43,005 nucleotides of DNA from Candidatus Izemoplasmataceae bacterium (GCA_965659955.1 CBFHYA010000004.1:19364-62368); one strand, 5' to 3'; positions 8,131 through 41,851 are shown, counted from the stretch's first letter. Numbers and translations: made by a program. Notes: generated by a model not told the origin, from the letters alone.

Positions 8131-8481
8131 CGCTTGCATTGAATAAGCCATGTTCTGTCCCCTTTAAAAAAGGGTGGCAACCATTTATCTGTACAATGTA
8201 CCTCGGCGTTAAGTTCAGTTCCTCACGCCAAGTGCCCCTACCAAAATTTGGGTTTCTAGCTTGTGGGGTTTACCCGTTCCACCTCTTTTATTGCTAAAAG
8301 AGCTCGTCTCTGTGGCACTTTTATAGATACTCAAGACTCCGGGGAGCCTCTTTCTCAGCCGTCACCCTTGCGGGTGCATAGAGTTATGGTTTCCTCTATC
8401 ACAATCACTACAGGCAATCGCAGCCTGTGCTAGCATGGACTTTCCTAACCATTTCTGGCTCGGTTGCCTACAATGCAAGGC
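8131..8481 (-). ncRNA. rnpB: RNase P RNA (ribozyme subunit; Bacillus/type-B-like)
   Basis: The minus strand carries the universally conserved P4 strands AGGAAAGUCCAUGC (RC of 8424-8437) and ACAGAACAUGGCUUA (RC of 8143-8157). A 9-bp P1 closes the molecule (CUUGCAUUG, RC of 8471-8479, pairs with CAAUGCAAG, RC of 8133-8141). No ORF is present, and the roughly 350-nt length is appropriate. Ends are good to about +/-5 nt. Confidence 0.85.
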
Positions 8482-12703: not shown

Positions 12704-12800
12704 ATGTATTCCTCCTTTAAATGATTGTTCTGACCGGATGCCACGTAAATCTCATGGAGGTGGGATAAACCTCGCAACCGGCGCAAGCATTATTATAGCA
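12704..12800 (-). promoter_or_regulatory. rpsO promoter (TGCTATAAT overlapping the ribF stop codon) plus a structured roughly 80-nt leader. It is a possible S15 autoregulatory element.
   Basis: The RC of 12792-12800 reads TGCTATAAT. The leader contains nested complementary segments (GCCGG...CCGGU; GAGGU...ACCUC; CCAC...GUGG) ahead of the AAAGGAGG RBS. Confidence 0.35.
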
Positions 12801-13725
12801 TAAATTCAGGTGAGGGCAAGACAAGTTTTAAGGGATTTAATGCGATTTTTGACGCATCCGCATCTCGGTCGATTTGAGCGATGAGATCGGCAACACTGTC
12901 AAACTTTTGTTCGTCTCTCAGCCACTTGACGAAATAGGTCGTAATGACCTCGCCATAAATGGTTTGTTCAAAATCAAATAAATAACTCTCAACACTGAGT
13001 GGATGGGCCGCATTCAGCGTCGGATTATGACCCACACTCGTCATCGATGGATACAGTGTATTTCCCACCCGGGTGATACTGGCATAAACACCACGTTTGG
13101 GAGTAATGCTTGTGGATAATTCAATATTCGCAGTCGGATAGCCAATGAGACGGCCTTTTTTCTCTCCGTGAATGACTTCACCTGTGATCGAAAAATAACG
13201 ACCTAAACGCGCGTAAGCGTCTTGCATTTTGCCCGCTTGAATGAGCTCTCGGATAATGGTTGAGCCAATTTTTTGCGATGAAAGTCGCATTTCTTTCATC
13301 ACGTGGACACGGAAGTTCCCCTCATCTTTGAGCGTTTGGGTCGTTCCTAAGCCCCCGTGCCCAAACCGGAAATCAAATCCACACACTAACATGTGGACCC
13401 CATTTAAATATTGTTCAATAAAAGTCGATGCATTCACCTCGGATAAAGCTTTATCAAACGGTAAAACAAATACCCGCTGGATGCCATAGCCCTTCAGCAA
13501 AGCTACTTTCTCTTTGAGCGGGGTGATGTATTTAAAATCCATCCCAAAAATGACACTTTTGGGGTGGCGATCAAACGTAATGACCACTGGCGTTTTTCCA
13601 GCTTTCTTCGCCTCATCTAGCGTGACTTGAATCAAAGCTTGGTGGGCTGTGTGGACCCCATCGAAAAAACCAATCGAAGCGACCATGGTCTCATCAAGCA
13701 TATGGGGAGTTAAAATGTCAGTCAT
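12793..13725 (-). CDS. ribF: Bifunctional riboflavin kinase / FMN adenylyltransferase
   Basis: 310 aa with an N-terminal GFFDGVH nucleotidyltransferase motif and a C-terminal riboflavin kinase block (GYPTANI...G.Y). It sits in the truB-ribF-rpsO order. Confidence 0.92.
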   Translation of the reverse strand: MTDILTPHMLDETMVASIGFFDGVHTAHQALIQVTLDEAKKAGKTPVVITFDRHPKSVIFGMDFKYITPLKEKVALLKGYGIQRVFVLPFDKALSEVNASTFIEQYLNGVHMLVCGFDFRFGHGGLGTTQTLKDEGNFRVHVMKEMRLSSQKIGSTIIRELIQAGKMQDAYARLGRYFSITGEVIHGEKKGRLIGYPTANIELSTSITPKRGVYASITRVGNTLYPSMTSVGHNPTLNAAHPLSVESYLFDFEQTIYGEVITTYFVKWLRDEQKFDSVADLIAQIDRDADASKIALNPLKLVLPSPEFML

Positions 13726-27939: not shown

Positions 27940-28171
27940 TGTGTGTTCTCCTCTCTTTTTTTACTTACACTATAATCCCTGAACACGGGGCTTATATATA
28001 AGGTTGTAAAAAGACTTATGGAATTTGTGAAGTCTTTTGAATAAAATACCACTCTTTATGCCCTTTTGACAAGTTTTTTTATCTTTTTTTACGTAAAAAA
28101 GCGTTTTCATAAACAAAATTGTCCGAAAAGTCGCGTTTTCATGACGATATGTCATAGGTAAGCCCGCGCCA

Positions 28172-28200
28172 TAAAAAAAGCACTCCCGAACGGGAGTGCT
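28172..28200 (-). terminator. Rho-independent terminator of the nqr operon
   Basis: 9-10 bp GC-rich stem AGCACTCCC(G)/(C)GGGAGTGCT followed by a T7 run on the minus strand, 12 nt after the nqrF stop. Confidence 0.75.
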
Positions 28201-28211
28201 TGATCCAACTT

Positions 28212-29297
28212 TTATGCAAAACTGTCGTAATACGTATGTTCTCTAGGGAGTTCGTGTTTGTTAAGGACGGCAATACACGCATGAATCATACCCGGTGATC
28301 CACATAGATAAGCTTCGGAACCGGATAAATCGCCGGTCATCCGGTCTAAGACATCGGTGATGAGGCCGGTTTCACCTTCCCAATTATCTTCGGGTAAGGG
28401 TTCAGAGAGTGCTGGAATGTATTCAAAGTTCGGGAATTCTTTTTGCAGTTCAACGAATTCTTCGGTGTAGTAAAGATCTTTTTTGGTTTTCGCCCCAAAG
28501 AAATAGCGGACTTTACGCGGCATATTGAGATCACGTAACCGGTAAAGAATCGAACGAATCGGTGCTTTCCCCGATCCCCCAGCGATACATACAATATCGC
28601 GATCAGATTCTTCTCTTAAGTAGAAGTCTCCATACGGTCCCGTAATTTTCATTGGGTCACCCGGTTGCATGACTTCATGAATAAAGGTCGTGGCAACCCC
28701 TTTATTTACCAATCTGACTAGGAATTCAACATGATCTTTGACTTTCGCATCACCCGCAAAGGAATACGCACGGACGGCTTCTACTCCCGGAATGATGAAC
28801 TGGGCATATTGGCCAGGATGGAAATCCAACGTTTTAGGATTGACCATTTTAAAGCGGACGAGTTTGATGTCGTAGGTTAAATCTTCTAAGGCCGCCAGTT
28901 CGACCTCGTATTCTTTGGCCCCAAAAAGACTTTCAGGGATTTCAATTTTGGTATCTTGAGCGATTCGGGTTTGGCAGGAAAGTCTAATGCCGTTGGCCGC
29001 ATCTTTCGGCCCGATGAAGGGTTCTTCGGTGGGTTTTAGATCAAAGGCACCTTCGGTGACTTTGACTTTACATAGGCCACATGTCGCTTTTCCCCCGCAT
29101 GCGGAGGGAATATAGATTTGATTTTTGGAGAGAATATTGAGTGCGGTATCGGATTCATTAATTGGAATTTGCAGTGAATCATTGACCGTTAATACTTTTT
29201 CACCACTGCTGCCAAAGGCGGTTTCTGCAGCAACGAGTAATAGACTCATTAAGACAAGGATGCCAATGAGGATGCTAATGACAATAATCGGTTCCAT
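28212..29297 (-). CDS. nqrF: Na+-translocating NADH oxidoreductase subunit F (NqrF): TM anchor, 2Fe-2S ferredoxin domain and FAD/NADH domain
   Basis: N-terminal TM helix; PSACGGKATCGLCKVKV...LSCQTRI (plant-type 2Fe-2S); RAYSFA (FAD); IAGGSGKAPIRS (NADH); C-terminal CGSPGM. It is closely collinear with Vibrio NqrF as I recall it. Confidence 0.9.
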   Translation of the reverse strand: MEPIIVISILIGILVLMSLLLVAAETAFGSSGEKVLTVNDSLQIPINESDTALNILSKNQIYIPSACGGKATCGLCKVKVTEGAFDLKPTEEPFIGPKDAANGIRLSCQTRIAQDTKIEIPESLFGAKEYEVELAALEDLTYDIKLVRFKMVNPKTLDFHPGQYAQFIIPGVEAVRAYSFAGDAKVKDHVEFLVRLVNKGVATTFIHEVMQPGDPMKITGPYGDFYLREESDRDIVCIAGGSGKAPIRSILYRLRDLNMPRKVRYFFGAKTKKDLYYTEEFVELQKEFPNFEYIPALSEPLPEDNWEGETGLITDVLDRMTGDLSGSEAYLCGSPGMIHACIAVLNKHELPREHTYYDSFA

Positions 29298-29306
29298 CGT
29301 TTCCTC

Positions 29307-29891
29307 CTAAAAGAATGAGAGTCCGGTAAAGCCAATAAAGGCTAAGGATAAAATCCCCATGATGATGAATACAATCCCGCGGCCGGCGAGGCCTCTTGGG
29401 ACGGTGGAATGATTTTCCATTTTTTCGCGAATGGCCGCAATCAAGATAATCGCCAAGGCCCAGCCAATGCCGGCCCCGAGTGAAAAGGTTGCGGTTTCTG
29501 CAAAGTTATAGCTCCGGTTCACAAAGAACTGAGACACGGCTAAGACAACGCAGTTGACCGTGATGAGTGGAAGAAATAATCCAAAGTTGTTGTACATTCT
29601 GGGGGATACTTTTTCAATAAAGATTTCTAAAAACTGAACGGTCGTCGCAATGGTAATGATGAACACTAAAATGGATAACCGCTCGGTTCCAGTCGCTTCT
29701 AACAATAAATAAATGGGGTAATTAATGATCGCGGTTAAAAAGACCACGAAAATAACGGCTAAGCCCATCCCCCGTGCATTTTTTACGTTCGTCGAGATGG
29801 CAATAAGTGGACACATCCCCAAAATAAAGATGAGGGCAATGTTTCTGGAAAGGACCGACTCAATAAAAACTTCAATTAAATTAATCATCAT
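29307..29891 (-). CDS. nqrE: NqrE/RnfA-family membrane subunit
   Basis: 194 aa, 6 TM, with the conserved motifs LGMCPLIA and ITVNCVVLAV (membrane Cys pair). Confidence 0.88.
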   Translation of the reverse strand: MMINLIEVFIESVLSRNIALIFILGMCPLIAISTNVKNARGMGLAVIFVVFLTAIINYPIYLLLEATGTERLSILVFIITIATTVQFLEIFIEKVSPRMYNNFGLFLPLITVNCVVLAVSQFFVNRSYNFAETATFSLGAGIGWALAIILIAAIREKMENHSTVPRGLAGRGIVFIIMGILSLAFIGFTGLSFF

Positions 29892-29898
29892 CTACCCC

Positions 29899-30534
29899 CT
29901 ATTCCGCTGCCACTTCAAAGTTTTGGGCCCATTCACGGACACCCCAAATGATTAATCCAAGCACAAAGAATCCACCGGGGGCTAAGGCCATGACGGTCCA
30001 GTTCACAAAGGTTTCTGGCATCACACGGAAGTTAAGGATGGTGCCAAAGGCTAAGGCTTCACGGATAATCGCAACCGCGATTAAAATCCAGGTGTAGCCT
30101 AAAGAGTTGGCAATCCCATCAAAGAACGTATACTTCATCGGGTTTTTAACGGCAAAGGCTTCAGCGCGTCCCATCACGATACAGTTGGTGACGATTAAGC
30201 CTAAATAAGCGCCGAGCGCAGCAGCAATGACAGGGAAATACGCTTCTAAAAACATTTGTACCATGATGACGAAGGCCGAAATGATGACCATATAGGTAAT
30301 CATGCGGACCCGGGCGGGAATGACTTTACGTACCATGGAGACCACCAAGGAACTGGCAGTGACCACAAACGTCACGGCAAGACCCATAGCAATCGCGTTT
30401 TCCACGCGGTTAGTAACGGCTAAGGCCGAACAAATCCCGAGTACAGCCACGACAATAGGGTTTTCTTTGAATAAGCCATCTTTGGTGATGTTAAACCATT
30501 TTGTGTATTGAATCTTTAACCAAAATTTTCGCAT
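29899..30534 (-). CDS. nqrD: NqrD/RnfE-family membrane subunit
   Basis: 211 aa, 6 TM, with the conserved motifs LGICSALAVT and VTNCIVMGRAEAFA (membrane Cys pair). Confidence 0.88.
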   Translation of the reverse strand: MRKFWLKIQYTKWFNITKDGLFKENPIVVAVLGICSALAVTNRVENAIAMGLAVTFVVTASSLVVSMVRKVIPARVRMITYMVIISAFVIMVQMFLEAYFPVIAAALGAYLGLIVTNCIVMGRAEAFAVKNPMKYTFFDGIANSLGYTWILIAVAIIREALAFGTILNFRVMPETFVNWTVMALAPGGFFVLGLIIWGVREWAQNFEVAAE

Positions 30535-31133
30535 TATTCGCCTCCGAGTGTGGCTTGGTAAGCCGGTATCACTTGTTCATAACTGTCATTCAGAATGGTT
30601 TGAAACGCACTGGATGTCGAAGTCGCTCCGGTAATCGCGTCGACTTGATTGGGTGCGCTTGCCCCTTCTTTTAATACTTCCACGATGGGGTCAAACACGA
30701 CCCCCTCATATTTGGCTAAGTAGGGAAGTTCAACAATCCGGCCCCCAAGGCCCGGTGTTTCTTGTTGGGCGAGGATGCCCACATTTTCGATCGTTCTAAG
30801 GTCTTCATTGAGTGTTAAGACGCCAATAATAGGCCCCCATACACCACCACCTTCGATTTCAAAGCTAATGCTTCCCGTATCGGGGTTGCGGTAGACTGGA
30901 ACATTCACCCCATCGATGGTGAGTTCCACTTTCTCGACATTTTCGGTAAAGGTGTCATAAATATTAGAGGTATTATACTCAATCTCAAACGCATCCAAAA
31001 TCTTCGATTGCAACAACGCTTCTTCGTTGCGCGTGATACGCTCTGAAGTCAAGACGTCCATGCCAATGAGCAAGGTCGATGTGATAACGCCCATCGCAAC
31101 GACAAAACCCATAATTTTTAGAATTCGGTTCAT
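30534..31133 (-). CDS. nqrC: NqrC/RnfG-family subunit (single TM plus FMN_bind domain)
   Basis: 199 aa with an N-terminal TM helix and the covalent-FMN attachment motif VDAITGATSTS near the C-terminus. Confidence 0.8.
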   Translation of the reverse strand: MNRILKIMGFVVAMGVITSTLLIGMDVLTSERITRNEEALLQSKILDAFEIEYNTSNIYDTFTENVEKVELTIDGVNVPVYRNPDTGSISFEIEGGGVWGPIIGVLTLNEDLRTIENVGILAQQETPGLGGRIVELPYLAKYEGVVFDPIVEVLKEGASAPNQVDAITGATSTSSAFQTILNDSYEQVIPAYQATLGGE

Positions 31134-32071
31134 GCCGCTTCCTCCTTACCCGTTAACCACGCATCAATGAGCGCACCCACGGCACTCATAATGATGATGG
31201 CAAAAATGAAGCCTTCAGCAAACGTGGCAAAATAGCGAATGATGAATGTAATAAATGCGACGCCAGCTCCATAAAGCCAAATGGCTTTTTTATTCACCGG
31301 GGCATGGACAGGGTCACTGGCAATGAAAATCGCCCCAAAGAGTAACGAACCCGTAAACACGGAAGGAATCGTTCCCCCGGTCGCGCCAAAGAGTTCGAAA
31401 ATCCCTGCAGTCACAATATAACTTACTAAGATCGATACCGGTAAACGCCAATCGATGACTTTTAAGAATGCCAAAACGGCCCCTAAGCCAATCAACAATA
31501 GTCCAAAGGTTTCTCCGATGTTACCCGGTACAAATCCCAATACTAAATCACTTAAGGAATAAAACGTCGATCCACTCGCATTGATTTGATGCAGCGGCAT
31601 CACAGGCGCTAAAGCATCGAGTGAGCTTTGCGAGAATGGATTAAACCAACCAAATGTTTGGGGATCATACCACCCAAAGATTAAAGCTGGAAACGAGATC
31701 ATTAAAAACATAATCCCAACGGCGGCGGGATGGAAAATGGTTTTTCCGTAACCACCGAATAATTGTTTGGCAAATAAGTTTCCGAACACAACGCCAACGC
31801 CTGCCATCCATAATGGCGCACTAGGAGGTAGCATTAACGCATAAAGTAAAGGAAAGACCAACCAACCTTCGTCGATTTTTTTCTTTTTAGCACGGGCAAA
31901 AACAAAGTCAACCCCCACACTGAGGGTAATGGACAGCCCCGCGATTACTAAAACGTACCAACCAAAAATCAAAAAAGAAGCGCTTAAAACAACGCCTAAG
32001 GCTGCTTCTAAATAAATGAGTTTTTTGCCGGTAATCGCTCGGCTGACAAACGCAGGTTGCGAGTCACTCAT
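31130..32071 (-). CDS. nqrB: NqrB/RnfD-family membrane subunit (RnfD-sized, 313 aa)
   Basis: Polytopic protein with RnfD/NqrB-type blocks (FGGYGKTIFHPAAVG; GETFGLLLIGLG; SDPVHAP). It overlaps nqrC by 4 nt. Confidence 0.8.
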   Translation of the reverse strand: MSDSQPAFVSRAITGKKLIYLEAALGVVLSASFLIFGWYVLVIAGLSITLSVGVDFVFARAKKKKIDEGWLVFPLLYALMLPPSAPLWMAGVGVVFGNLFAKQLFGGYGKTIFHPAAVGIMFLMISFPALIFGWYDPQTFGWFNPFSQSSLDALAPVMPLHQINASGSTFYSLSDLVLGFVPGNIGETFGLLLIGLGAVLAFLKVIDWRLPVSILVSYIVTAGIFELFGATGGTIPSVFTGSLLFGAIFIASDPVHAPVNKKAIWLYGAGVAFITFIIRYFATFAEGFIFAIIIMSAVGALIDAWLTGKEEAA

Positions 32072-32115
32072 GATGTCACCACTTTCTAAATAATATATGT
32101 ATTACATCTTTTAAC

Positions 32116-32124
32116 ATTATAGCA
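32116..32124 (-). promoter_or_regulatory. Extended -10 promoter TGCTATAAT of the nqrBCDEF operon
   Basis: The RC reads TGCTATAAT, about 45 nt upstream of the nqrB ATG. An 11-nt palindrome ATGTAATACAT (32097-32107) lies between the -10 and the RBS. Confidence 0.45.
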
Positions 32125-32182: not shown

Positions 32183-32992
32183 TTAATCAGCCGAATGGGC
32201 CGTCATAAATCCTTCCGCAAAGTCGATAATTTCACGCATCGAAATCAAACGACTATCGGCTTGTCCAATCAACCCTTTGGTTATTGTGTCTTTCGTTTCA
32301 AACGCACGACCACACCCTTGAAATGTGTCAGTGGAATAGTTGTAATCCCACACGTACCGAGTTTTTGGGCCTTCATTTGAGTTGACATAATAGAGTTCTT
32401 TCTCACTTTTTCTCGTGGCCACTAGACTCTCGGCATAGTGAAGAGCCGTTAGAGTGTCATAGTGTGTCCCAATCATTAATAGTTTGAAATCTGCGTGATA
32501 CATCCGGTGCAGAGGACTCTCTTCATCAAATGCATGCCCCGGGTGATGCGGATGAAGGATCGTCTCGGCGTTTTTCCCCCATGCCGCAAATGCACTTTTA
32601 GGATGCATTGAACGTTTTACGCCTGGATATGTCCGAAAGTATTCGGCCACCCGGCCGATGCTGTAAGCCGGTGTTTTTGAAGGATCATATGCCGGCATAT
32701 GCGCTTTGATTTTTTCAACCCAGTCTGTGGGAACGGGTGGGTTTTCCCAGAGGGCGGGATCGGATAAATTGCCCGTTTGAGAAGGCATCACGAGTGTGCC
32801 TTCTCCGGTTATCACCGCCATTAAGGCTTCAATGAGCGTCCGCTCACCGCCAATAATCCAGCCGATTTTGGCTAAACTCACATGAAACATCACCGAATCT
32901 CCCGGCGATAGCCCCAAGGCTTTTAAGTCTTCTATTAAATCTTCTTTAGATATAGGGGATTTGGTTTTTTCAATGACTTTAAGCTCTCTCAT
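32183..32992 (-). CDS. Aminoglycoside N(3)-acetyltransferase family protein (AAC(3)/YokD-like)
   Basis: 269 aa. The N-terminal block GLSPGDSVMFHVSLAKIGWIIGG...L. and later PSQTGN / HP.HPGHAF segments are characteristic of the AAC(3) antibiotic N-acetyltransferase fold. The start overlaps the ABC-F stop (ATGA). Confidence 0.78.
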   Translation of the reverse strand: MRELKVIEKTKSPISKEDLIEDLKALGLSPGDSVMFHVSLAKIGWIIGGERTLIEALMAVITGEGTLVMPSQTGNLSDPALWENPPVPTDWVEKIKAHMPAYDPSKTPAYSIGRVAEYFRTYPGVKRSMHPKSAFAAWGKNAETILHPHHPGHAFDEESPLHRMYHADFKLLMIGTHYDTLTALHYAESLVATRKSEKELYYVNSNEGPKTRYVWDYNYSTDTFQGCGRAFETKDTITKGLIGQADSRLISMREIIDFAEGFMTAHSAD

Positions 32993-35314: not shown

Positions 35315-36118
35315 TTACGCTTCCACGTAACCTTGTTCTTCAGAGAGCCATGTGGATGAAACATTAAGCATAACTCCATAGAAGATTTTGGAAGTAACGT
35401 CGGCGATGGTGTAAAGCACTTGCTGTGCGACAATCGCTAAAGCGGCAACTTCGGAAGCTGAGCCACCGAATAAAGGCATAATGTACGCCACTGGATAAAT
35501 GGTCCATGAGACATAGAATAAAGGTAAGATGGCGGCGAAGAGTGGTTCTGCTTTGCTGCCTTTCATGTTGGCACGGCCTTCTTTGATAACTTGTGTGATA
35601 AGAACTAATACCCAAATGTAGAAGAGGGTTGAAATAACACCCCATACGATCCACATAGTGATATCAGTTTCAGCGCCACGACCTGGTTCATAGAACTGAC
35701 CAATATAACCAGTAATGATCATGAGTGATCCACTGGCAGTAAAGCGCACTAAATATTTCTTAAATGCGGCACCCGCAATTCCAGCTACGAAAAGAATTTG
35801 GATGAGAAGATGAGGGACATCAATCAACCAGTTCAGGTAACGGAAACCGTTGGTGAAAGTACTTTCGCCAGAAGCGACGTATTGGCCGCCTTCTAGGACG
35901 AATGCATCAGCCCAACTTTGGGATTGTAAGAATAAGAGTAAGAACGCTGATACCATAACGACACCACTAAGTACACTCGATGGGCGATATTTAGGTGCGT
36001 TATTTTTGATGGTTAATACGAAATAAAGAAGTGCTGCACCCATAGCAGCAAATCCAAAGGTTAAAACATGTTGCACAACTTCAAATTGCCATACTGCTAA
36101 GCTGCTTAAACCTGTCAT
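35315..36118 (-). CDS. Microbial (type-1) rhodopsin with the NDQ motif, a predicted light-driven Na+ pump (NaR/KR2-like)
   Basis: 7-TM protein. Helix C reads FRYLNWLIDVPHLLIQILFV, giving N, D and Q at the three functional positions. Helix G reads YTIADVTSKIFYGV, with the retinal Schiff-base Lys and counterion Asp. Long identities to KR2 as recalled: LLYF.LTIKN, VVMVSAFLLL, MIITGYIGQFYE. The AAGGAGG RBS is 4 nt before the ATG at 36118, and the ORF-track start at 36169 has no RBS. Confidence 0.93.
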   Translation of the reverse strand: MTGLSSLAVWQFEVVQHVLTFGFAAMGAALLYFVLTIKNNAPKYRPSSVLSGVVMVSAFLLLFLQSQSWADAFVLEGGQYVASGESTFTNGFRYLNWLIDVPHLLIQILFVAGIAGAAFKKYLVRFTASGSLMIITGYIGQFYEPGRGAETDITMWIVWGVISTLFYIWVLVLITQVIKEGRANMKGSKAEPLFAAILPLFYVSWTIYPVAYIMPLFGGSASEVAALAIVAQQVLYTIADVTSKIFYGVMLNVSSTWLSEEQGYVEA

Positions 36119-36152
36119 TTGTTCCTCCTTGATATAATATAAAGATACATTT

Positions 36153-36181
36153 ATTGTACTCCTATCCATTAAACATTACAA
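36153..36181 (-). promoter_or_regulatory. Sigma-A-type promoter of the rhodopsin gene (TTGTAA - 17 nt - TACAAT)
   Basis: The RC of 36176-36181 is TTGTAA and the RC of 36153-36158 is TACAAT, with exact 17-nt spacing. This predicts a leader of about 28 nt. Confidence 0.5.
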
Positions 36182-37518: not shown

Positions 37519-38487
37519 ATGTTTGATTTTGCCGTGGAAGCAAAGTCCGAAAAATCACTTTTTGAATCGCAAAAACATTTCGATTTTGCGGTCATTGGGG
37601 GCGGCCCAGCGGGCATGAATGCCGCGCTTTATGCCATCCGTAAAGGTTTATCGGTGGCTGTCTTCTCTTTAGAAATAGGCGGACAACTTCACAACACCAG
37701 TGAAGTAGACAATTATATAGGGATTGAAAATACCACCGGCGGGAAGCTATCTGAAGCATTCCACCATCATGTGTTAGAACTTGGTGTACCCATTAAAACT
37801 GGGCACCTTGTCACAAAACTGGAAAAACCCGATGATTTTCACATTACCTTAGATAACAATGAGGTTTATACAGCCAAGACCGTCCTTTATGCAACGGGCG
37901 GTGCGCCAAGGAAACTCGGGGTTCCAGGTGAGGAAGAATTCGCGAATAAAGGGGTATCATATTGCACCACGTGTGATGCACCCTTCTTCAAAAACGAACA
38001 CGTCATTGTGGCGGGTGGAGGCAATAGTGCTGCTGAATCCGTCGTTGACCTCGCGGCATGGGCGTCCAAAATTACGGTGGTTCACCGGTCTCAGTGGCGG
38101 GCCGATCAGATCATACTTGATCAGTTCAAAAACATTGAGGGACTGGAAATCAATTTAGAAACCCAGATTTTAGAAATTTTTGGAGATACGAAAATGCGGG
38201 GGGTCAGAGTCCTAGACAAACCTTCGGGTGAAGAACGTGTCATTGAAGCCGATGGGATGTTTGTGGAAATCGGTAATATCCCCAAAAGCGCGTTACTGAA
38301 AGGCCTTGTTGACTTAAACGAACAAGGCGAAGTGATCGTATCACGCGATCAAGAAACGTCACTCCCTGGCCTCTATGCAGCTGGTGATGTTACCACACAA
38401 CCGTATAAACAAATCATTATTTCTGCCTCGGAAGGTGCCGTTGCGGCCCTGGCAGCGACCCAATATTTAATGCATCATAAAAATTAA
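37519..38487 (+). CDS. Thioredoxin-reductase-fold flavoprotein disulfide reductase, AhpF C-terminal-module-like
   Basis: FAD motif VIGGGPAGMNAA, redox CTTC (YCTTCDAPFF), NAD(P)H motif VAGGGNSAAE, and C-terminal AAGDVT..PYKQIIIS..EGA.AAL closely resembling AhpF. Confidence 0.88.
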   Translation: MFDFAVEAKSEKSLFESQKHFDFAVIGGGPAGMNAALYAIRKGLSVAVFSLEIGGQLHNTSEVDNYIGIENTTGGKLSEAFHHHVLELGVPIKTGHLVTKLEKPDDFHITLDNNEVYTAKTVLYATGGAPRKLGVPGEEEFANKGVSYCTTCDAPFFKNEHVIVAGGGNSAAESVVDLAAWASKITVVHRSQWRADQIILDQFKNIEGLEINLETQILEIFGDTKMRGVRVLDKPSGEERVIEADGMFVEIGNIPKSALLKGLVDLNEQGEVIVSRDQETSLPGLYAAGDVTTQPYKQIIISASEGAVAALAATQYLMHHKN

Positions 38488-38497
38488 GGAGATAAAC

Positions 38498-39142
38498 ATG
38501 GAAAAATTATTGAATGAAGAAGTCACCAAACAAGTTAAAGAATATTTAAACCCGATGCAAGAATCAGTAACAATGGTTCTTTTCACCCAAGAAGGCGCCT
38601 GTAATACGTGCCAAGAAACGCGTCAGCTTTTAAGTGAAGTTGCCGCCCTCACTGACAAACTCACTTTAGTCGAAAAAGATCTCAATAAAGACGCCGCTCT
38701 CGCCGAAGAATACGGCGTGACTATGACCCCAAGTTTTGTCATGCTTGATAAAGATGACACTTACAAAGGCGTCAAATTTAATGGTATCCCAGCTGGTCAT
38801 GAAATCAACTCATTCTTATCGGCCTTGATGGATATGTCCGGCATTGACTTTGGTTTGGCTGAAACCATCGGCAATCGTTTAGATAAACTGGATAAACCCG
38901 TTAACATTAAAGTCTTTGTGACATTATCTTGCCCGCATTGCCCGGGGGCGGTATCCAATGCCCACCGTTTAGCGATGAGCCATCCACACATTGAAAGTGA
39001 AATGATCGAAGCGCAAACCTTTGGGGAGCTTTCCCAAAAATTCAATGTTTCCGGCGTCCCCAAAATCATCATCAACGATGAACACGAACTGGTCGGCAAT
39101 CAACCCATCCAAGAATACTTAAAAACCATCGAAGCCTTGTAA
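38498..39142 (+). CDS. Two-thioredoxin-fold protein disulfide oxidoreductase (PDO / glutaredoxin-like; AhpF N-terminal-domain-like) with two CxxC sites
   Basis: 214 aa with a first fold carrying CNTC and a second carrying CPHC. FNGIPAGHEINSF and TLSCPHCP align with the AhpF NTD blocks (F.G.P.GHEF.S; SLSC.NCP). Confidence 0.8.
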   Translation: MEKLLNEEVTKQVKEYLNPMQESVTMVLFTQEGACNTCQETRQLLSEVAALTDKLTLVEKDLNKDAALAEEYGVTMTPSFVMLDKDDTYKGVKFNGIPAGHEINSFLSALMDMSGIDFGLAETIGNRLDKLDKPVNIKVFVTLSCPHCPGAVSNAHRLAMSHPHIESEMIEAQTFGELSQKFNVSGVPKIIINDEHELVGNQPIQEYLKTIEAL

Positions 39143-39210: not shown

Positions 39211-39297
39211 TGGTGCGAATGGGGGGATTTGAACCCCCACAGCCTTGCGGCCACATGGCCCTCAACCATGCGCGTCTACCAGTTCCGCCACACTCGC
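39211..39297 (-). tRNA. tRNA-Leu (anticodon GAG), class II with a long variable arm, CCA encoded
   Basis: The RC folds as acceptor GCGAGTG/CATTCGC, anticodon stem CATGG/CCATG with loop TTGAGGG, variable arm TGGCCGCAAGGCTGT and T-arm GGGGG-TTCAAAT-CCCCC, ending ACCA. Confidence 0.93.
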
Positions 39298-39300
39298 AGG

Positions 39301-39375
39301 TGGTGGAGAATGACGGATTCGAACCATCGACCCCTTGCACGTCAAGCAAGTGCTCTCCCACTGAGCTAATCCTCC
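39301..39375 (-). tRNA. tRNA-Val (anticodon GAC), CCA encoded
   Basis: RC: GGAGGAT-TA-GCTC-AGTGGGA-GAGC-A-CTTGC-TTGACGT-GCAAG-GGGTC-GATGG-TTCGAAT-CCGTC-ATTCTCC-ACCA, a full cloverleaf. Confidence 0.93.
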
Positions 39376-41549: not shown

Positions 41550-41568
41550 AAGAACTCCTTAAATTAAG

Positions 41569-41642
41569 CGTTCCGGGAGGGATTCGAACCCCCGACCTGC
41601 AGCTTAGGAAGCCGTTGCTCTATCCTACTGAGCTACCGGAAC
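41569..41642 (-). tRNA. tRNA-Arg (anticodon CCU), no encoded CCA
   Basis: RC: GTTCCGG-TA-GCTC-AGTAGGATA-GAGC-A-ACGGC-TTCCTAA-GCTGC-AGGTC-GGGGG-TTCGAAT-CCCTC-CCGGAAC-G. The anticodon stem has an A27:C43 mismatch and a G-U pair. The 3' flank is CTT. Confidence 0.88.
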
Positions 41643-41671
41643 GTAATTTCATTATACTTACCCTTTGACAT

Positions 41672-41693
41672 AAAAAAAAGACCCGAGGGTCTC
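41672..41693 (-). terminator. Short hairpin plus U8 immediately after tRNA-Gly, a likely terminator separating it from tRNA-Arg(CCU)
   Basis: The minus strand reads AGACC-CUCG-GGUCU followed by UUUUUUUU. A TATAAT box (RC of 41651-41656) follows, 9 nt before the tRNA-Arg(CCU) 5' end. Confidence 0.45.
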
Positions 41694-41767
41694 TGGAGCG
41701 ATAGAGGGGAATCGAACCCCCGTCTTCACCGTGGGAGGGTGACGTTCTACCATTGAACCACTACCGC
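41694..41767 (-). tRNA. tRNA-Gly (anticodon CCC), CCA encoded
   Basis: RC: GCGGTAG-TG-GTTC-AATGGTA-GAAC-G-TCACC-CTCCCAC-GGTGA-AGAC-GGGGG-TTCGATT-CCCCT-CTATCGC-TCCA. Confidence 0.92.
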
Positions 41768-41774
41768 ACGAAGA

Positions 41775-41851
<77 letters not shown>

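Follow-up and report, generated by a model that had tools for sequence, protein, structure and literature searches.

Gene clusters of the layout nqrBCDEF that lack nqrA were described in Thermotoga thermarum and (Pseudo)thermotoga lettingae in 2014 (PMC4148951), in Clostridium ultunense and P. lettingae in 2018 (PMC5924567) and, also in 2018, in Ca. Izimaplasma ZiA1, with Acholeplasma palmae cited as another case (PMC6256511). Other papers on Tenericutes label the cluster simply 'Rnf' (PMC7301438, PMC8397711). The layout itself is already known, and the electron acceptor was left open in those genome papers. We found no biochemical study of such A-less clusters in the searched literature, and a recent review, which describes RNF and NQR as having a strictly conserved cofactor chain in the membrane core, does not discuss A-less forms (PMC12174285). 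Two sets of residues matter for the part of this chain that lies in the B subunit. The ApbE flavinylation motif is D-x-x-[S/T]-G-A-[S/T], and replacement of its acceptor Thr abolishes flavinylation (PMC12052999). NqrB residues N200, N203 and D346 show absolute conservation across NQR, and riboflavin is lost from the double mutants (PMC9293633). We investigated a 43,005-nt stretch of DNA (the whole stretch is called the window) from Candidatus Izemoplasmataceae bacterium (GCA_965659955.1 CBFHYA010000004.1:19364-62368). ORF calling in this 43-kb window gave five minus-strand open reading frames (ORFs) in the order B-C-D-E-F, from 32071 to 28212. The host of the operon is an uncultured, Izemoplasmatales-like Mycoplasmatota bacterium: among named organisms, the closest matches to its LepA (70-73% identity) come from Izemoplasmataceae, Acholeplasmatales, Liberiplasma, Xianfuyuplasma and Ca. 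Izimaplasma, and metagenomic sequences reach 80-96%. With high confidence, we regard the locus as a genuine A-less five-subunit NQR-lineage member of the RNF/NQR redox-pump superfamily. A first-pass annotation had noted the five-gene layout without nqrA, which the papers cited above had already described. The new point, missed in that annotation, is the loss of the flavin sites of B in this lineage, for which we found no description in the searched literature.

In an alignment to solved structures, the segments LDGVTTATPL of RnfD and DGYSGATAL of NqrB correspond to SLDALAPVMPL in the window B. The column of the flavin-bearing Thr (T236 of Vibrio cholerae NqrB) is occupied by Met158 in two independent alignments, and no ApbE motif is found anywhere in the window B. 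Among 64 B subunits of the A-less clade, this column contains Thr in 60 and Ser in one and is absent in two; the window alone has Met. A sequencing error was ruled out as the source of Met158: three metagenomic contigs from independent assemblies and protein clusters P0121-P0124 (85-98% identity) share the residue, and the codon context recurs there. At the riboflavin site, the equivalents of N200 and N203 are T111 and H114, and only D346 is kept (D253), leaving one of the three residues. B also lacks NqrB G140 and G141 and the N-terminal extension of ~90 aa. The acidic residues D55, D253 and D303 (V. cholerae E144, D346 and D397) are kept. Several of these changes extend to a subclade of 19 clusters (at least 57% identity), all or nearly all of which have N200T, N203H, E144D and R209I, together with several further Gly/Pro to Ala changes. 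The former FMN (flavin mononucleotide) site in this subclade reads P-L-T-P-L-H, with M instead of T in the window's group. Furthermore, H114 and H161 are newly invariant in the subclade. In outgroup B subunits (n = 101), the H161 column is G in 65 and the H114 column is N in 99, with 94% conservation of N200 and 98% of N203. Both histidines adjoin former flavin sites, H114 and H161 being next to the riboflavin and FMN sites, respectively. The B subunits of other Mycoplasmatota are partly eroded: N200Y is frequent, and the flavinylation motif is deleted in one locus (L036) and degenerate in Acholeplasma oculi (MIATPVTPA). By these alignments, the B subunit of the window lineage has lost residues that normally hold its two flavins.

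In length and fold, B is RnfD-like, as modelled here. It is collinear with residues 43-303 of C. tetanomorphum RnfD, and its alignment with NqrB begins only at NqrB residue 123-127. The AlphaFold model has a predicted local distance difference test score (pLDDT) of 83 and a predicted template modelling score (pTM) of 0.84. The top three Foldseek matches of this model are RnfD chains, for which the template modelling score (TM-score) is 0.81-0.83 when taken by query and 0.75-0.84 when taken by target, and the model covers 75-84% of RnfD chains versus 55-67% of NqrB chains. Both the length (313 aa versus ~400 aa for NqrB) and the model coverage agree with the earlier description of B as RnfD-sized rather than NqrB-sized.

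We then investigated the cofactor motifs of the other four subunits. F carries the 2Fe-2S ferredoxin ligands C67/C73/C76/C108, the motif RAYS at 176 as the site for flavin adenine dinucleotide (FAD) and the motif GGSGKAP at 240 as that for NADH. F matches V. cholerae NqrF with E 7e-51, and its residues 172-203 stand opposite V. cholerae residues 175-246, indicating that a ~40-aa insertion in the FAD domain is missing. C35/C118 of D align with C29/C112 of V. cholerae NqrD, which are ligands of the intramembrane 2Fe-2S cluster, and C27/C114 of E align with C26/C120 of NqrE, the other two ligands. Acidic residues are kept as well, with D at the position of V. cholerae NqrD D133 and E at that of NqrE E95. 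C has an intact ApbE motif, DAITGAT, from which T171 is predicted to be the flavin-accepting residue. The hallmarks of NqrF in F (to which the Pfam domains can be added), the paired membrane cysteines in D and E and the flavinylation motif of C had all been recognized in the first pass and are confirmed. By these motifs, three predicted modules are intact: F for the oxidation of NADH, the D/E cluster for transfer across the membrane and C for an outward covalent FMN.

The five subunits match both nqr and rnf equivalog models of NCBIfam, with every score under the curated cut-offs. B scores higher with rnfD (161.6 bits) than with nqrB (149.6 bits), D higher with nqrD (224.6 bits) than with rnfE (176.8 bits) and E higher with nqrE (180.4 bits) than with rnfA (172.2 bits), while the best model for F is nqrF (253.9 bits; cut-off, 295). 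We constructed neighbour-joining (NJ) trees in numpy with 500 bootstraps, in which D and E, as ancient paralogs, root each other. The tree set comprised 24 clade members, three structurally solved RNFs and two canonical gammaproteobacterial NQRs. NqrD and the clade D subunits group to the exclusion of RnfE in 494 of 500 bootstraps, and NqrE and the clade E subunits group to the exclusion of RnfA in 487. By these trees, the D/E core belongs by descent to the NQR lineage and not to RNF, a placement that fits a single acquisition of F. The 'RNF-like membrane core' of the first-pass annotation therefore holds for the RnfD-like shape of B and not for descent, because D and E side with NqrD and NqrE in the rooted trees. 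Monophyly of the A-less clade was recovered in 160/500 and 61/500 bootstraps, and canonical NQR may be either sister to this clade or nested within it.

Three clade members have a gene for a ~500-aa protein, which we call A', that overlaps the start of B by 4 nt: L014:5568-7067, L029:4616-6118 (Omnitrophota) and L023:4714-6246 (Anammoxibacter). A' resembles RnfC (E 2.5e-44) much more than NqrA (8e-16). Both CxxCxxCxxxCP motifs for 4Fe-4S clusters are retained in A', whereas its FMN loop is degenerate (SLDREGIPT in place of GMGGATFPT in RnfC). The A' operons end in NqrF. A' looks like a transitional form from RnfC to NqrA, as far as its motifs suggest, and the A-less and A' features are consistent with a grade that links RNF to canonical NQR and would be either ancestral or secondarily reduced. 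An RNF-NQR intermediate, as had been proposed for the locus, is plausible at the level of the clade, given the RnfC-derived A' and an F without the ~40-aa insertion; the polarity is not settled.

Because B has lost its flavin-holding residues, the usual electron route cannot be assumed, and the canonical path of a 'minimal five-subunit Na+ pump', as the locus had been described, is doubtful without the FMN-bearing Thr and two of the three riboflavin residues. We propose, with a probability of roughly 45%, that electrons from NADH exit at the outward FMN of C and that B is kept as a scaffold or cation path. F would oxidise NADH on the cytoplasmic side and pass the electrons to its FAD and then to its 2Fe-2S cluster. 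The electron would move on to the four-Cys intramembrane 2Fe-2S cluster of D/E and then arrive at the covalent FMN that C holds on the outer side of the membrane. The limb by which the electron returns inward in canonical NQR and RNF, with its covalently attached FMN and its riboflavin, both in B, is probably lost here, because B has Met at the flavin site, no ApbE motif and two of the three riboflavin residues replaced. From the FMN of C, the electron would pass to an acceptor at the cell surface, which may be a free flavin, O2, a metal ion or a flavinylated reductase encoded apart from the operon. B would probably remain as a docking scaffold for C, a cation path or both. The C subunit of A. 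oculi, a member of the same Mycoplasmatota clade, carries five flavinylation motifs and lends indirect support to an outward exit.

Several points weigh against this proposal. B could hold its flavins non-covalently or through other residues, with D253 (V. cholerae D346) kept. The Thr is kept by most members of the 19-cluster subclade, although its surroundings are non-canonical. The window B has INASGST, a relaxed motif, at 163-169, though it is unconserved in the subclade, where N-[SA]-T-G-D-T is mostly found; as a relocated flavinylation site it was retained only as a caveat. The equivalent loop of V. cholerae NqrB is unflavinylated. Outward electron export alone dissipates the membrane potential, and neither ApbE nor extracellular-reductase or acceptor-related genes are found in the 43 kb. 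A partner subunit may be encoded elsewhere in the genome. Finally, our trees are NJ only, with three RNFs and two gammaproteobacterial NQRs as references.

A more far-reaching version of electron exit at C is that the B subunit of the whole subclade is flavin-free and the U-turn path, otherwise universally conserved, is cut. The complex would then be a one-way exporter from NADH to the cell surface that ends at the FMN of C, with B serving as a scaffold or cation channel or binding a new cofactor on H114/H161, and, with an NDQ rhodopsin encoded near the operon, light-driven Na+ energetics would be linked to fermentative redox balancing in a wall-less bacterium. We consider this version less likely than not. 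A somewhat unlikely alternative, in our estimation, is that the complex is still a Na+-pumping NADH:(mena)quinone oxidoreductase with a U-turn path, in which the B flavins are bound non-covalently or through substitutes such as H114 and H161, and quinone is reduced at B without NqrA. B is intact, is under purifying selection and has an RnfD/NqrB-like fold, and the Na+-linked acidic residues of B (D55, D253 and D303), D and E are all kept. NqrA has no cofactor and no assigned function in canonical NQR (PMC12174285), and an NDQ rhodopsin encoded three genes away makes a Na+ economy plausible. However, such a pump would have to work with Met in place of Thr at the FMN attachment site and with only one of the three riboflavin-site residues, double mutants of which no longer hold riboflavin (PMC9293633). 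G140/G141 and the entire N-terminal extension of NqrB are missing as well, and the window contains no quinone-biosynthesis gene, though 43 kb says little about the genome as a whole.

Could the operon be a decaying remnant in a reduced genome, with B degenerating first? The identity to the nearest (sister) species is 60% for B, 62% for C, 90% for D, 83% for E and 86% for F, making B and C the fastest-evolving subunits, and the flavin-site residues are lost. However, none of the strains and species examined has a broken ORF among the five. Against strain-level relatives, B has a ratio of nonsynonymous to synonymous change (pN/pS) of 0.11-0.14 and the other four subunits have 0-0.03, thus within 0.00-0.14 for the operon, indicating that B is under purifying selection and not a pseudogene. 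In addition, the B substitutions are fixed across the 19-cluster subclade together with new invariant residues, and the operon has its own -10 box and terminator. We regard decay as very improbable. The synonymous divergence from L085-L087 is 0.25-0.27 for F and 0.03-0.08 for B, C, D and E. Because that of F exceeds that of B to E, a recombination breakpoint near the E/F junction is suggested.

We then investigated the gene content of the window and the distribution of A-less operons. Overlaps of 4 nt (B/C) and 1 nt (C/D) and gaps of 7 nt (D-E) and 9 nt (E-F) bear out the tight packing noted in the first pass. The gene upstream of B is an acetyltransferase, as had been stated, and the downstream neighbour of F is an Opp-type binding protein (Pfam). 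No NqrA, RnfC, RnfB or ApbE domain is present among the 38 ORFs scanned in the window (at least 100 aa, excluding short ORFs that overlap longer ones), so the reported absence of nqrA, rnfC and rnfB from the operon extends to the whole 43 kb. A canonical NqrA query from the nqrABCDEF locus of a Pseudomonadales genome (L089) and two RnfC-like queries also found no match in the window, and F is not followed by apbE or nqrM. An exact look-up of the window F gave no record. Strain-level relatives (L085-L087), which were found through a protein (P0001) 99% identical to the window F, have the five genes in identical order, as does a sister species (L002-L004; F 86% identical). They are also found in a complete Mycoplasmatota genome of 1.65 Mb (L001), with other neighbours.

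A scan with an F profile over one genome per species yielded 80 loci, for which 10-kb flanks were inspected with a simple ORF caller. These loci span more than ten phyla, including Mycoplasmatota, Spirochaetota, Clostridia, Planctomycetota, Omnitrophota, Cloacimonadota, WOR-3 and Thermotogota. A clean B-C-D-E-F run is present in 56 of the 80, the remainder being cut by contig ends or ORF-calling problems. More than 1.5 kb of sequence lies upstream of B in 48 of the 56 clean loci; 45 of these 48 have no A gene and three have an A-like gene. In this survey, a large clade of anaerobes has the A-less arrangement as its default. A gene for a soluble protein of ~150 aa was observed 0-25 nt after F in 51/80 loci, all of them non-Mycoplasmatota (for example, L015, L024 (11114-11572), L054 and L074). 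This protein has the conserved pattern MKQSPEL...HGF.EG.GS.FRL; Pfam and NCBIfam gave no match to it, and the PDB none of significance (flavodoxin, E 0.04). A-less complexes may have it as a sixth component, and neither the window nor any Mycoplasmatota locus has its gene.

These data bear on the possibility that the complex is completed in trans, with a soluble partner docking on B to take up the electrons. This partner could be RnfC- or NqrA-like, supplied for instance by the separate rnfCDGEAB operon of many Izemoplasmatales, or some other protein. The three A' genes joined to the operon and the ~150-aa gene right after F in other phyla are consistent with such a partner, and Ca. Izimaplasma genomes were reported to have two Rnf complexes beside NqrBCDEF (PMC6256511). 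On the other hand, no A-like gene lies within 10 kb at the 45 of 48 informative loci or in the window, the ~150-aa gene is not a feature of Mycoplasmatota, and T. lettingae, T. thermarum and C. ultunense, whose genomes are complete, were reported to lack NqrA (PMC4148951, PMC5924567). Moreover, a cytoplasmic partner would still need the B flavins, whose sites are degenerate here. Completion in trans therefore seems improbable for this locus.

We predict with high confidence that B-C-D-E-F is encoded as its own transcription unit (Table 1). The earlier claim of an extended -10 promoter about 45 nt before B stands as far as the TGcTATAAT box at that distance is concerned. No convincing -35 is present ahead of this box, and our consensus scan omitted the box for that reason; the region contains 12 promoter-like sites versus 9.4 +/- 2.7 in shuffles, which is not above chance. 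Because of the missing -35 and the chance-level number of sites, TGcTATAAT is only plausible as the promoter of the operon. A leader riboswitch was also considered and dropped: Rfam at the gathering threshold gave only RNase P and tRNAs.

Table 1. Coordinates of the operon, its signals, selected codons and neighbouring genes in the window.
Feature	Position	Strand	Description
B subunit	31130-32071	minus	313 aa; Pfam PF03116 NQR2_RnfD_RnfE, 1e-66; NqrB/RnfD homologue with RnfD-like architecture
B His114 codon	31730-31732		newly invariant in subclade
B Met158 codon	31598-31600		column of V. cholerae T236
B His161 codon	31589-31591		newly invariant in subclade
C subunit	30534-31133	minus	199 aa; NqrC/RnfG homologue; N-terminal membrane anchor and Pfam FMN_bind
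C Thr171 codon	30621-30623		predicted flavin-accepting residue
D subunit	29899-30534	minus	211 aa; Pfam Rnf-Nqr; NqrD side of NqrD/RnfE family
E subunit	29307-29891	minus	194 aa; Pfam Rnf-Nqr; NqrE side of NqrE/RnfA family
F subunit	28212-29297	minus	361 aa; transmembrane anchor; Pfam Fer2, FAD_binding_6 and NAD_binding_1
Extended -10 box	32116..32124	minus	TGcTATAAT; read from sequence; 45 nt 5' of B ATG; plausible promoter
Ribosome-binding site	32076..32080	minus	GGTGA; 4 nt ahead of B ATG
Intrinsic terminator	28171..28201	minus	strong; 10-bp GC-rich stem (6 GC pairs), 4-nt loop, T7; begins 10 nt past F stop
Gene upstream of B	32183-32992		AAC(3)-type acetyltransferase (Pfam)
Microbial rhodopsin	35315-36169	minus	NDQ motif N113/D117/Q124
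Thioredoxin genes	37519-39142	plus	thioredoxin-reductase-like gene and thioredoxin-fold gene, beside rhodopsin
tRNA genes	39211-39375 and 41568-41851	minus	five genes in two small clusters
RNase P RNA	8139-8476	minus	class B (Bacillota/Mollicutes-type); 277 bits (Rfam)
ribF	12793-13725	minus	bifunctional riboflavin kinase/FAD synthetase

A microbial rhodopsin gene lies three genes upstream of the operon, and this neighbourhood is kept in L002, L004 and L086. The protein has the motif N113/D117/Q124 and matches KR2 in the PDB with E ~5e-62. KR2 and other light-driven Na+ pumps have this NDQ motif. A rhodopsin of the Na+-pump type in a Mycoplasmatota lineage is notable in itself. The thioredoxin genes beside it are accompanied by a CsoR-type repressor in two relatives (L002 and L086). 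The tRNA clusters and the RNase P RNA are other features of the window, and ribF has relevance to flavin supply while being unlinked to the operon. Yet another mode of action would be reverse operation, in which a Na+ gradient (from the NDQ rhodopsin or an ATPase), the membrane potential or both would drive electrons inward by way of C, D/E and F, from a donor outside the cell or in the membrane to NAD+. RNF is reversible (PMC12174285), and the synteny of rhodopsin and operon is conserved in relatives. However, NqrF-type modules are known as NADH-oxidising inputs, and no donor is evident. Reverse operation is purely speculative, and we hold it to be highly improbable.

The coupling of Na+ movement to electron transfer through the B flavins remains a matter of debate. 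A lineage under selection that has F, D, E and C intact but the Thr and the riboflavin Asn residues of B replaced amounts to a natural triple mutant. Continued Na+ pumping by the complex would mean that coupling can do without the B flavins. A complex that no longer pumps would show that the first half of the machinery can act alone as a transmembrane electron exporter. These results also give context to the long-standing puzzle of nqrBCDEF without A, in that this layout appears as the default of a large clade and belongs to the NQR lineage. The RnfC-derived A' forms, which retain their Fe-S motifs, bear on the origin of NQR from RNF.

Compared with Na+-NQR, the window has in common the NADH input through NqrF, the four-Cys 2Fe-2S cluster of D/E, a C subunit with the motif in its FMN domain, the order B-C-D-E-F and the acidic residues equivalent to E144, D346 and D397 of B, D133 of D and E95 of E. 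However, Na+-NQR has six subunits with the cofactor-less NqrA heading the operon. Its NqrB (~400 aa) has an N-terminal extension that shapes the quinone/inhibitor site with NqrA, as well as T236, N200, N203, G140 and G141, and its NqrF has the ~40-aa insertion in the FAD domain. None of these is found in the window, where B has Met at T236. The RNF complexes (RnfCDGEAB) of C. tetanomorphum (7ZC6), A. woodii (9ERI) and A. vinelandii (8AHX) have a core homologous to B/C/D/E of the window, and the length and fold of RnfD are matched by B, whereas the flavinylated Thr of RnfD is missing. RNF has RnfC (FMN and two 4Fe-4S clusters) and the RnfB polyferredoxin, neither of which is found in the window, where the input module is of the NqrF (NADH) type. 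The published A-less clusters (Thermotoga, C. ultunense, Izimaplasma ZiA1 and A. palmae) belong to the same broad clade as the window by the similarity of F, D and E. The B subunits of this clade mostly keep the flavinylation motif (60/64) and N200/N203 (~55/64), which the window subclade has lost, and clusters outside Mycoplasmatota usually add the ~150-aa gene after F, which the window lacks. The 'NQR/RNF-like' class of PMC8238504 was ruled out as a match, being defined by a fusion of NqrB with an NAD-binding domain. The C subunit of A. oculi ATCC 27350 (L012:6195-8660) has 821 aa and five tandem FMN-binding repeats, with the motifs DAITGAT, DGFGGAT (twice), DGYGSAT and DGYASAT. Multi-flavinylated RnfG proteins have been proposed to supply extracytosolic acceptors (PMC8238504). 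The multi-flavinylated RnfG/NqrC proteins (Meheust et al. 2021, PMC8238504) have several FMN domains, whereas the window C is a single domain with no linked acceptor protein or ApbE gene. What they share with our proposal for the window C is an extracytosolic, ApbE-flavinylated FMN domain that would serve as the outward terminus of the electron path.

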